A stretch of DNA of 55,256 bases from Holophaga sp. (GTDB lineage: Bacteria; Acidobacteriota; Holophagae; Holophagales; Holophagaceae), in assembly GCA_041908845.1 (NCBI GenBank), contig JAYREN010000001.1, forward strand, positions 1-55,256, written 5' to 3'. The notes under the pieces were generated by a model. That model did no database searches. It saw nothing but the letters and a program-made list of their open reading frames with translations, and was not told the DNA's origin. Numbering within the stretch: the first letter of the stretch is position 1; each line of letters opens with the position of its first letter. The position numbers and the translations under genes were made by a program. Shown piece by piece: positions 35,195-36,649 of this stretch.

Positions 35195-36649
35195 TTACTT
35201 CTTTACGGCCTTCTTCACGACCTTCTTGGCGACCGGCTTCTTGGCGACGGCCTTCTTCACGACCTTCTTGGCGACCGGCTTCTTGGCGACGGCCTTCTTC
35301 ACGACCTTCTTGGCGACCGGCTTCTTGGCAACGGCCTTCTTCACGACCTTCTTGGCGACCGGCTTCTTGGCAACGGCCTTCTTCACGACCTTCTTGGCGA
35401 CCGGCTTCTTGGCGGCGGCCTTCTTCACAGCGGGCTTCTTGGCAACAGCCTTCTTCACGGCGGGCTTCTTGGCCGCAGGCTTCTTCGCGGCGGGCTTTTT
35501 GGCCGCTGGCTTCTTGGCCGCAGGCTTCTTCGCGGCGGGCTTCTTGGCCGCAGGCTTCTTCACGGCGGGTTTCTTGGCCGCAGGCTTCTTGGCGGCGGGC
35601 TTCTTGGCGGCCTTCTTCACAGGCTCAGCCGGGGTATCCGCGACGGGAGTGGTCTCGTCAGGGAGCTGGACGTGTTCCATTGGGAACTCCTTTTTGCCCT
35701 TCCGGGCGGGGTGGGGTGAAGGGGTGGATGGTGAGAGTGGAGCTGACTTGGTGCTCGGTTTCGCTTTTGCGGTGCTGCCCCCTGCAGCGGTCTTCATCCC
35801 TTCTGCCGGGGATGTGGAGGCCTCGGAATCCTTGGCCGGCGCGGCTTCCGACTTGGTCTTGGCCTTGGGGGATTTCTTGGGAGGCTCGATCCCCGCGAGA
35901 ATCTGGGCCAAGCGCTTGCCCGGATAGAACTCGTCGAGAAAGACGTCGCCGATGATCACGCCATGGACGCCCATGGCTTCGAGCTGGCGGATCTGGGCAA
36001 GGGTGGCGACGGCGGCCTCGACCATCCGGAAGCACTTTTTTTCCGGAACCTTCTTGAGGAGCGCGAGAGCCTTTTCAAAGGAGGGCTCCCACGTATCCAT
36101 ATCGCGGCCGACGACGCAGACGATCTCGGCCTCGGCCTCAAGTGCTCGCTTGAGGTCGGCTTCGCAGAACACCTCGACGACCACGTCGAGGGACTTCGCG
36201 GCAGCGAGGCGCTGGAGGGCGATGAGCCGCTCCGGCTCCAGAAGGGCTGCCACGAGGTAGATGGCATCGGCACCCAGGATCTTGCTCTCTTCGATCTGGT
36301 ACTCCTCGAAGATGTAGTCCCGGCGGATCAGCGGGACCTTCACCTGCCCGCGGACCTCGGAGAGGTGCTTGTCCTCAGCGGAGTACAGAAAGCGATCGGT
36401 GGCCACGGAAATCGCGCGAGCCCCGTTCTCCACAAGGCTCTTGGCGTGGGTCGCGGGTCGGAAACTCTCCCGCACCTGACCCCGCAGCGGATTGCCCCCG
36501 GCAACTTCGGCGATCACGGAAATGCCCGGCTGGCTTAGTTCTTCTTTGAGAGAGTGGTGCCCCCGGTACGCGTCTTTGTTTGCCGCGGGACCTCTTTGCT
36601 TCTTGATCTCGATGTCCAGCGCCTTGAATATCTGGACTTTTTTCAGCAT
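35195..36649 (-). CDS. TrpC-like (indole-3-glycerol-phosphate synthase fold) domain fused to a histone-H1-like Lys/Ala/Pro repeat tail
   Basis: The N-terminal 255 aa or so align by eye to IGPS (VIAEV..., [32 protein letters not shown]). An S/P/A/K-rich linker follows, then about 130 aa of AAKKP and [14 protein letters not shown] repeats. The ORF is uninterrupted and has a GAAGGAG RBS. Confidence 0.8.
35207..35416 (-). repeat. Five tandem copies of a 42-bp coding repeat
   Basis: The unit GGCCTTCTTCACGACCTTCTTGGCGACCGGCTTCTTGGCGAC (plus strand) starts at 35207, 35249, 35291, 35333 and 35375 with only 1-2 substitutions. It encodes [14 protein letters not shown]. Confidence 0.95.
35417..35620 (-). 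repeat. 15-bp-periodic coding repeat (KKPAA pentapeptide array)
   Basis: GGCTTCTTGGCCGCA / GGCTTCTTCGCGGCG-type units are reiterated about 13 times, encoding [15 protein letters not shown].... Confidence 0.9.

Follow-up and report, generated by a model that had tools for sequence, protein, structure and literature searches.

What is made from a gene whose first part reads as IGPS (indole-3-glycerol-phosphate synthase, TrpC) and whose last part reads as a histone H1-like polycation? The question is raised by a stretch of 55,256 nucleotides (nt) from Holophaga sp. (assembly GCA_041908845.1, contig JAYREN010000001.1, positions 1 to 55,256), referred to below as the window. An earlier reading, made from the sequence alone and called here the sequence-only reading, had placed a frame with an IGPS-like head and a basic tail at positions 35195-36649. 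We find it exactly there, on the minus strand, where it starts with ATG and encodes 484 amino acids (aa; 51.8 kDa, isoelectric point (pI) 10.2) in three parts: a (beta/alpha)8 barrel of degenerate IGPS fold that is extended by a helix at its N-terminus (35885-36649; aa 1-255, pI 6.3), a basic linker modelled as disordered (35681-35884; aa 256-323), and an H1/Hc2-like repeat tail (35198-35617; aa 345-484). A second, in-frame ATG (Met324, 35678-35680), preceded by a perfect Shine-Dalgarno (SD) sequence, marks the end of the linker. The answer that we come to favour, with rather more confidence than doubt, is that this is a Holophagaceae-specific, single-locus gene in which one frame would yield two proteins, with the barrel as a non-catalytic head and the tail as a module that would bind DNA or another polyanion.

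The Pfam IGPS family (PF00218) matches aa 27-239 of the protein (E=5.6e-42), and an AlphaFold2 (AF2) model of aa 1-252 reaches a mean predicted local distance difference test (pLDDT) score of 88.4 and a predicted template modelling (TM) score of 0.87. In Foldseek searches with this model, the best natural match is IGPS, with a TM score of 0.90 to the Pseudomonas aeruginosa enzyme (6y88); designed Kemp eliminases rank at the top, which are built on IGPS-based scaffolds and are biologically meaningless matches. To compare active sites, we used an HMMER alignment to 6y88 and a MAFFT alignment that includes the Sulfolobus solfataricus enzyme, whose sequence is self-consistent in its numbering; residue positions are given in S. 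solfataricus numbering throughout. Both alignments reproduce each of the substitutions listed by the sequence-only reading. The canonical AEIKKASPS has become AEVAGGNPL in the window protein (K53A), RKDF has become RRDY (K110R), GINNR reads CVVGR (N180V, with Gly at position 181 and R182 retained), and ESGI reads EAAV (S211A, G212A). E51, E159, R182, E210, and G233 are all retained, and the earlier remark that the fold-defining glutamates are kept thus holds for E51, E159, and E210.

The same pattern extends across the 111 relatives. Lys is found in none of them at position 53 (A in 92, S in 10, P also seen) or at position 110 (R in 87, H in 13, Q in 6, Y in 3, L in 1), while position 180 carries V, L, or R and position 211 mostly A or G. 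The retained residues are nearly fixed (E51 in 102/103, E159 in 100/111, R182 in 111/111, E210 in 110/110, and G233 essentially invariant). Every family representative reads E-A-[R/H]-E-[V/L]-R-E-A, whereas about 135 of the 143 nearest representatives of ordinary IGPS show E-K-K-E-N-R-E-S-G-G. Because the canonical signature falls in identical alignment columns, an error of register, which the sequence-only reading had allowed for, can be excluded.

Loss of the IGPS residues does not by itself settle what the barrel does. One alternative is that it has become a neo-functionalised enzyme or small-molecule sensor, which would turn the retained Glu and Arg residues to another ligand, with the tail bringing it to the nucleoid. 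In its favour, E51, E159, R182, E210, and G233, together with much of the beta1-alpha1 loop (A-G-G-x-P..G..R), are invariant or nearly so, and the barrel as a whole is 61-99% identical across the family, better conserved than dapF or ftsB of the same loci. Conservation within the barrel has a different distribution from that expected of a ligand pocket, however. Its best-conserved elements are helices alpha0, alpha1, and alpha3 and the beta8-alpha8 region (0.87-0.95), whereas variability is greatest in the beta7-alpha7 loop, which formerly bound phosphate, and in the beta5-alpha5 loop (mean identity 0.52 and 0.38). We looked for retained ligand binding as extra conservation of the active-site face across the family and saw none, the catalytic-face loops averaging 0.77 and the stability-face loops 0.80. 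Position 110 is not fixed, and polar catalytic residues have given way to hydrophobic ones (A, V/L, A, F/Y at 131, and M at 133), which looks like filling of the pocket. The conserved gene neighbourhood, moreover, offers no candidate ligand or pathway partner. Taken together, the barrel looks like a constrained scaffold rather than a conserved pocket, and the ligand-sensing role suggested by the sequence-only reading is left unsupported by the highly variable beta7-alpha7 loop and by a catalytic face no better conserved than the opposite one. The invariant Glu and Arg residues and the beta1-alpha1 loop nevertheless leave room for a new ligand-binding role, and we regard the enzyme or sensor as an unlikely explanation, albeit one that deserves to be kept in mind.

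In the tail (aa 345-484), Lys accounts for 43% of residues (60 Lys), Ala for 29%, Val for 17%, and Pro for 11%; there is no Asp or Glu, and the pI is 11.8. It is built of AAKKP and 14-residue units, the latter encoded by a 42-bp tandem unit (35205-35428, minus strand) present in 5.3 copies at 98% identity, which points to a recent repeat expansion. Pfam HC2 (PF07382) matches aa 345-481 with E=2e-17 and 64.4 bits against a gathering score of 40. The composition bears out the H1-like Lys/Ala/Pro tail proposed earlier, and such a tail is kept in nearly all complete relatives, where the C-terminal polycation carries a net charge of +15 to +77. Its length varies even between relatives that are 94-99% identical. 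In members with a low guanine-plus-cytosine (GC) content, the tail is rich in K/T/N/S instead of K/A/P and yet basic, so that charge rather than sequence appears to be selected. On the strength of this composition and of the analogy to AlgP, PhaF, and Hc2, we consider it fairly likely that the tail binds nucleic acid or another polyanion. Two plus-strand frames of 247 and 233 aa overlap the tail (34976-35719 and 35226-35927) and encode Leu/Gly/Asp and Phe/Leu/Ala/Thr repeats; as mirror images of the Lys/Ala repeat DNA, they are almost certainly not genes.

The tail carries no sequence-specific features, and its main partner could be a polyanion other than DNA, such as polyphosphate (polyP) granules or RNA and ribosomes, which the protein would then organise. 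The CHAD domain family is linked to polyP granules, and the window does encode a CHAD-domain protein (5601-6503, plus strand), beside a HAMP histidine kinase and a sigma-54 response regulator (10634-11989). This is weak context for a polyP role, as the CHAD gene lies 30 kb away and is unlinked, and the conserved neighbours of the barrel-tail gene are division and segregation genes rather than polyP genes. A closer parallel is AlgP, which has a similar KPAA tail, is found at polyP granules, and sets their spacing along the nucleoid (PMC11894788). AlgP does both, so that a polyanion role is compatible with DNA binding. We therefore treat another polyanion as the principal partner as a minority possibility, and DNA or nucleoid binding as the more natural suggestion from composition and analogy.

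Between barrel and tail, the linker is poorly conserved except at its end, where a single island, [ST]TPSxxA[RQ]KGxKExxM, recurs across the family. In the window, the island contains the DNA AAG GGC AAA AAG GAG TTC CCA ATG, in which the SD sequence AAGGAG (35687-35692, codons Lys320-Glu321) lies 6 nt before the ATG of Met324. Initiation there would give a product of 161 aa (35195-35680, Met324-Lys484; 16.7 kDa, pI 10.95), with a short acidic to neutral N-terminal peptide followed by Lys-rich repeats.

Several features suggest that this site is maintained as a translation start. Among 49 distinct DNAs, all six SD bases, including two codon third positions, are invariant (49/49), and the spacer between SD and start is always 6 nt (49/49), though its letters differ. 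The start codon itself is ATG in 48/49 and GTG in 1/49; GTG marks the H. foetida clade, and H. foetida itself has it too (GAA AAG GAG CTT CCA GTG). Such invariance is not a property of Lys and Glu codons in these genes: in the same linkers, Lys is encoded by AAG in 64% and Glu by GAG in 38% of cases, and in a phylogeny-matched control with the same 49 sequences, none of the 16 barrel columns with an invariant Lys or Glu has an invariant codon (0/16). AAGGAG followed after 5-8 nt by ATG or GTG occurs at four sites on the two strands of the window, and the other three are true gene starts, namely those of the barrel-tail gene itself, of a 1001-aa TonB-dependent-receptor-like outer-membrane protein, and of flaG. 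The main start of the barrel-tail gene has its AAGGAG at 36655-36660, 5 nt before the ATG at 36649; in 70 of 71 relatives, the main SD is merely moderate (GGAG/GGGGG), which makes the internal ribosome-binding site (RBS) both the stronger and the better conserved of the two. A neighbour-joining tree with canonical IGPS as its root shows the internal start in all major clades, the earliest to branch among them, with about four losses. By these comparisons, the internal SD and start codon are under selection at the nucleotide level. Given the contrast between 49/49 and 0/16, a free 161-aa tail protein is probably also made; we judge it likely that internal initiation is used, and that the gene probably gives two products rather than a tethered barrel alone. 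The sequence-only reading had considered that the tail might be translated solely as a separate protein. The conserved internal SD and start fit the separate product, whereas the preserved fusion frame, described below, speaks against the word solely.

The island could instead be a docking or modification motif that acts as a peptide, in which case there would be no internal initiation and the 484-aa fusion would be the sole product. Consistent with this, the residues [ST]TPSxxA[RQ]KG before the SD are conserved as well, local mRNA structure shows no drop, and the island is wholly missing in several lineages. A peptide motif would not account for two invariant wobble bases in AAG-GAG (49/49, against 0/16 for the control Lys and Glu codons), nor for a spacing held at 6 nt while its letters vary. 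Met is replaced solely by Val encoded by GTG, never by Leu or Ile, and one clade has AKKKAAKK directly after the Met. We also modelled barrel, linker, and island together in AF2, and the island did not dock onto the barrel; residues 260-342 have pLDDT values of 28-39, all below 40, which argues against a docking motif, though not decisively. On this evidence, a purely peptide role for the island is improbable, and internal initiation is our preferred explanation.

The surroundings of the internal start include further features. About 10 codons before the SD (35701-35725, minus strand; ..CCC GCC CRN AAG GGC) are conserved in L001-L101 too, with an invariant GG at -18/-17, and could represent a standby or enhancer site or a peptide motif. 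In the window, the internal ATG lies in or beside a 5-bp hairpin formed by the palindrome GTTCC-CAAT-GGAAC (35674-35687); this occurs in the 'EFPME' variants only and, being missing from the others, is probably incidental. A programmed -1 frameshift, in which a dnaX-like slippery run (A AAA AAG) would be combined with the SD, was rejected, as the run is found in some variants only, others having GTA, CAC, or GCA before AAG-GAG. A fused basic tail lacking the SD/ATG island is found in a low-GC clade (P0034, P0036, P0037, P0039, P0041-43, P0045, and P0097), as well as in P0007/9/12, P0035 (= L061), and P0096.

Could the gene, in spite of its replaced residues, be the working TrpC of the organism, one whose active site is atypical and to which a basic tail has been added? 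Its IGPS Pfam match and fold are strong, databases name its relatives 'indole-3-glycerol phosphate synthase', and E51, E159, R182, and E210 are kept. In M. tuberculosis IGPS, however, K59A (equivalent to K53A, in the beta1-alpha1 segment) leaves no detectable activity and K119R (equivalent to K110R, the general acid on beta3) lowers kcat more than 2700-fold (PMC10591298), and the window protein unites both changes with N180V and S211A. Variation among R, H, Q, Y, and L at position 110 is incompatible with a conserved general acid, and the phosphate-binding loop is poorly conserved. Consistently, 14 NCBIfam TrpC models match the protein and all 14 score far under their cutoffs (best 173.8 bits against 260). 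The genomic context agrees. Extending the earlier remark that no other trp genes are adjacent, we found none in the entire 55-kb window and none beside the barrel-tail gene in about 90 related loci; the canonical IGPS P0113, by contrast, sits in a trpEGDCFBA operon. A Glycos_transf_3 protein (20586-21887) was considered as TrpD and rejected, since its PYNP_C domain identifies it as a pyrimidine-nucleoside phosphorylase. The search for a separate canonical trpC covered about 1 Mb of related loci, all from one genomic region, and found none, which reflects the limits of the search rather than absence; a profile search seeded with the nearest canonical IGPS likewise returned generic IGPS only, for example from Solirubrobacteraceae, and identified no Holophagae trpC, and the literature searched named none. 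With both catalytic lysines and two substrate-binding residues lost family-wide, all TrpC cutoffs missed, and equivalent M. tuberculosis mutants dead or severely impaired, the barrel is, as judged from its residues, very likely not an active IGPS, in line with the 'probably inactive' of the sequence-only reading; that it serves as the organism's TrpC is very hard to believe.

Barrel and tail also appear to belong together. In 60 of the 61 genes whose stop codon lies on the contig, one continuous frame of 350-705 aa runs through both. The linker occurs in 64 distinct versions and more than 20 length classes (38-81 aa, with one of 281 aa), and none of them contains a stop in frame 0, whereas the +1 and +2 frames contain stops in 39/64 and 43/64. 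A continuous frame that survives so many insertions and deletions indicates that the fusion is under selection and is not an artefact of gene calling, and the full-length protein is, on this pattern, very probably translated. In some members, Ser/Lys/Ala/Thr-rich linkers of up to 281 aa precede the internal start, as in P0127 (562 aa) and another gene of 705 aa; the linker, like the tail, thus evolves by expansion. The idea that gene calling has merged two separate genes, one for the barrel and one for an H1-like protein of its own, which would then not be functionally fused, can draw on the strong internal RBS and start and on the poor conservation of the linker, but it is scarcely tenable when 60/61 complete genes lack a stop between barrel and tail, all 64 linkers keep frame 0 while about two thirds have stops in the other frames, and the tail is still fused in lineages without the internal start.

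We therefore return to a two-product gene with a non-catalytic head, and propose the following scheme. The first product (484 aa) would consist of an IGPS-type TIM barrel without IGPS chemistry, a disordered basic linker of about 70 aa, and a polycationic tail of about 140 aa; the second (161 aa, pI ~11) would be the tail alone, initiated at the internal ATG with its perfect SD. The tail would bind DNA or another polyanion non-specifically and help to compact or organise the nucleoid, as do the tails of AlgP, PhaF, Hc2, and HupB, while the barrel would serve as a globular head that rides on the nucleoid and takes part in self-association or in contacts with a partner or cargo. The two RBSs would set the ratio of head-bearing to free tail, with the internal one being the stronger. 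By analogy with these proteins, we give about even chances to the protein acting as a nucleoid-associated protein. A bolder version, to which we attach little weight, would be a two-isoform, H1-like chromosome organiser, in which an abundant free polycation is accompanied by a minority form with an ex-enzyme cap. The remodelled pocket of this cap, with the Glu triad and Arg kept and the lysines gone, would bind a metabolite or a partner, and nucleoid compaction and the co-transcribed ftsB and parAB would thereby respond to the metabolic or cell-cycle state.

Several observations weigh against this scheme and are best seen together. The HC2 match is driven by composition in a low-complexity region, and NCBIfam H1-like models score far under their cutoffs (Hc2 28.3 against 135, hist_H1_lk_Burk 30.3 against 80). 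Invariance of E51, E159, R182, E210, and the beta1-alpha1 loop would be compatible with a new ligand-binding or catalytic role of the barrel. The mRNA near the internal start shows no less structure than other parts of the gene, and the roughly 10 residues upstream of the SD ([ST]TPSxxA[RQ]KG) are partly conserved as a peptide, which an RBS does not explain. About four lineages without the internal start retain the fused tail, so that the free tail would be dispensable in some of them. Finally, a separate canonical trpC was not encountered within the limited region searched.

The distribution of the gene is narrow. When 5.8 billion proteins were searched by word index with the barrel as query, about 110 clusters came up at 61-99% identity, followed by ordinary IGPS at no more than 38%; in an exhaustive HMMER profile search of 1.84 billion representatives at 50% identity, seven family representatives scored 328-482 bits and the next match at most 188 bits. 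The family is thus a discrete, taxonomically restricted clade. Its named members come from Holophaga foetida, Holophaga sp., Holophagaceae bacterium, and unclassified Acidobacteriota, and the most divergent named cluster, at 61% identity, is still from Holophagaceae. A single record (P0006) bears the name "Firmicutes bacterium", probably through a mistake in binning or annotation. Apart from this record, the phylogenetic spread of the fusion is confined to Holophagaceae and unclassified Acidobacteriota, and the gene is present in all sampled Holophagaceae. The P0100 cluster (61% identity, 355 aa, with a 33-aa tail after the Met) is found on hundreds of contigs from many sources and may come from an abundant lineage.

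Gene order was compared in six GTDB genomes and in 80 loci from metagenomes. Wherever the contig is long enough, a divergent upp is followed by the barrel-tail gene, eno, ftsB/DivIC, in some cases dapF, then parA, parB, and a Mur-ligase-like gene. In the window, upp (uracil phosphoribosyltransferase; 36941-37567, plus strand) is the conserved divergent upstream neighbour, eno (enolase; 33862-35142, minus strand) follows 52 nt downstream of the barrel-tail gene with no terminator-like site in between, and ftsB/DivIC, dapF, parA, and parB (30979-33857, minus strand) complete the conserved same-strand cluster, in agreement with the neighbours named by the sequence-only reading. The next gene is eno in all relatives. 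The link to parAB that had been drawn earlier is conserved in most relatives but absent in H. foetida (L102, KI912268.1), where upp, the barrel-tail gene, eno, and DivIC are kept, the cluster ends there, and parA/parB are not adjacent; it is therefore not universal in the family. Upstream of the main start, a promoter-like element (36727-36754, minus strand; TTGACC, 16 nt including TG, TTTAGT) lies about 75-105 nt before the ATG. In the consensus of 71 upstream regions, TTGACC and CGCTGGTTT are conserved, and we infer that this element is the promoter.

The remainder of the window contains few features that touch the barrel-tail gene. A PADLOC scan gave no match, and an Rfam scan of the window found nothing but one tRNA (19712-19784, minus strand). 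This tRNA, the pyrimidine-nucleoside phosphorylase, and the TonB-dependent-receptor-like protein with its perfect SD lie in a stretch of lower GC content (18000-24000; 0.56-0.59 against about 0.63), which may be an island or may simply hold highly expressed genes. Upstream of the flagellar genes, positions 37594-48792 comprise glycosyltransferases (GT9 with tetratricopeptide repeats (TPR), GT1), TPR-methyltransferases, and a further frame, followed by flagellin (45989-46672), flaG (46744-47130), and fliD (47149-48792); the glycosyltransferase block before flagellin could be a flagellin-glycosylation island.

Being universal and syntenic in its lineage, with two strong translation signals and a tail of nucleoid-protein composition, the gene makes a first-rate candidate for a major nucleoid-associated protein peculiar to this lineage. 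We know of no other work on the chromatin proteins of Acidobacteriota, an abundant phylum, and a literature search found no published description of the barrel-tail protein or of such a fusion. It would provide a natural case in which a TIM barrel from central metabolism has been put to new use as a globular head without catalysis, and its analysis illustrates how comparison of synonymous sites can expose internal starts overlooked by gene callers. On the practical side, predictions of pathways or auxotrophy for Holophagae should leave out of their TrpC counts the more than 100 database entries that carry the name "indole-3-glycerol phosphate synthase".

Among known systems, canonical IGPS is the closest in fold. 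The enzymes of P. aeruginosa (6y88), S. solfataricus (1igs), and M. tuberculosis (3t44) share the same barrel and N-terminal helical extension (TM 0.85-0.91, 25-38% identity), and E51, E159, R182, E210, G233, and the alpha3 'YQxxE..GAD' segment are kept in the family. The family differs from them in the replacement of K53, K110, N180, and S211 throughout, in missing every NCBIfam TrpC cutoff, in its location outside a trp operon, in its basic extension of about 230 aa, and in forming a clade of its own, which a wide gap in score sets apart from all IGPS.

In overall architecture, the protein is more akin to AlgP of P. aeruginosa and the Pseudomonas phasin PhaF, which combine a structured head with a long disordered Lys/Ala/Pro repeat tail of hypervariable repeat number, and whose KPAA tails are taken to bind DNA and tether polyP or polyhydroxyalkanoate granules to the nucleoid (PMC11894788). 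Here, by contrast, the head is a degenerate TIM barrel rather than a coiled coil or phasin domain, Pfam and NCBIfam scans of the barrel-tail protein gave no match to a phasin or AlgP N-domain, and the lineage is Acidobacteriota instead of Pseudomonadota. In the passages of that review consulted, neither AlgP nor PhaF is said to have an internal start from which the tail alone would be made (PMC11894788). The tail resembles chlamydial Hc2 and bacterial H1-like proteins (PF07382; NF038052, NF038053) and the mycobacterial HupB tail in being a Lys/Ala-rich, repetitive polycation with a pI of about 11, and the predicted 161-aa product would belong to this type as an independent protein; the match is compositional, however, and does not support common descent. 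A globular domain joined to a Lys-rich tail is also the layout of eukaryotic linker histones.

For the second product, the nearest parallels are proteoforms made by internal initiation, of which IF2, ClpB, and CheA are classic examples. As in these cases, a second SD and start lie inside, and in frame with, a longer reading frame and would give a C-terminal fragment. A retapamulin Ribo-seq survey of E. coli has covered in-frame internal initiation as a source of bacterial proteoforms (bioRxiv 10.1101/520783), whereas the basis here is comparative, and the predicted short form is a disordered polycation rather than a folded domain. Thus, the plan of a folded head with an H1-like tail is a known one, and what is unprecedented is its combination with an ex-enzyme TIM barrel as the head and a gene that probably encodes two products.

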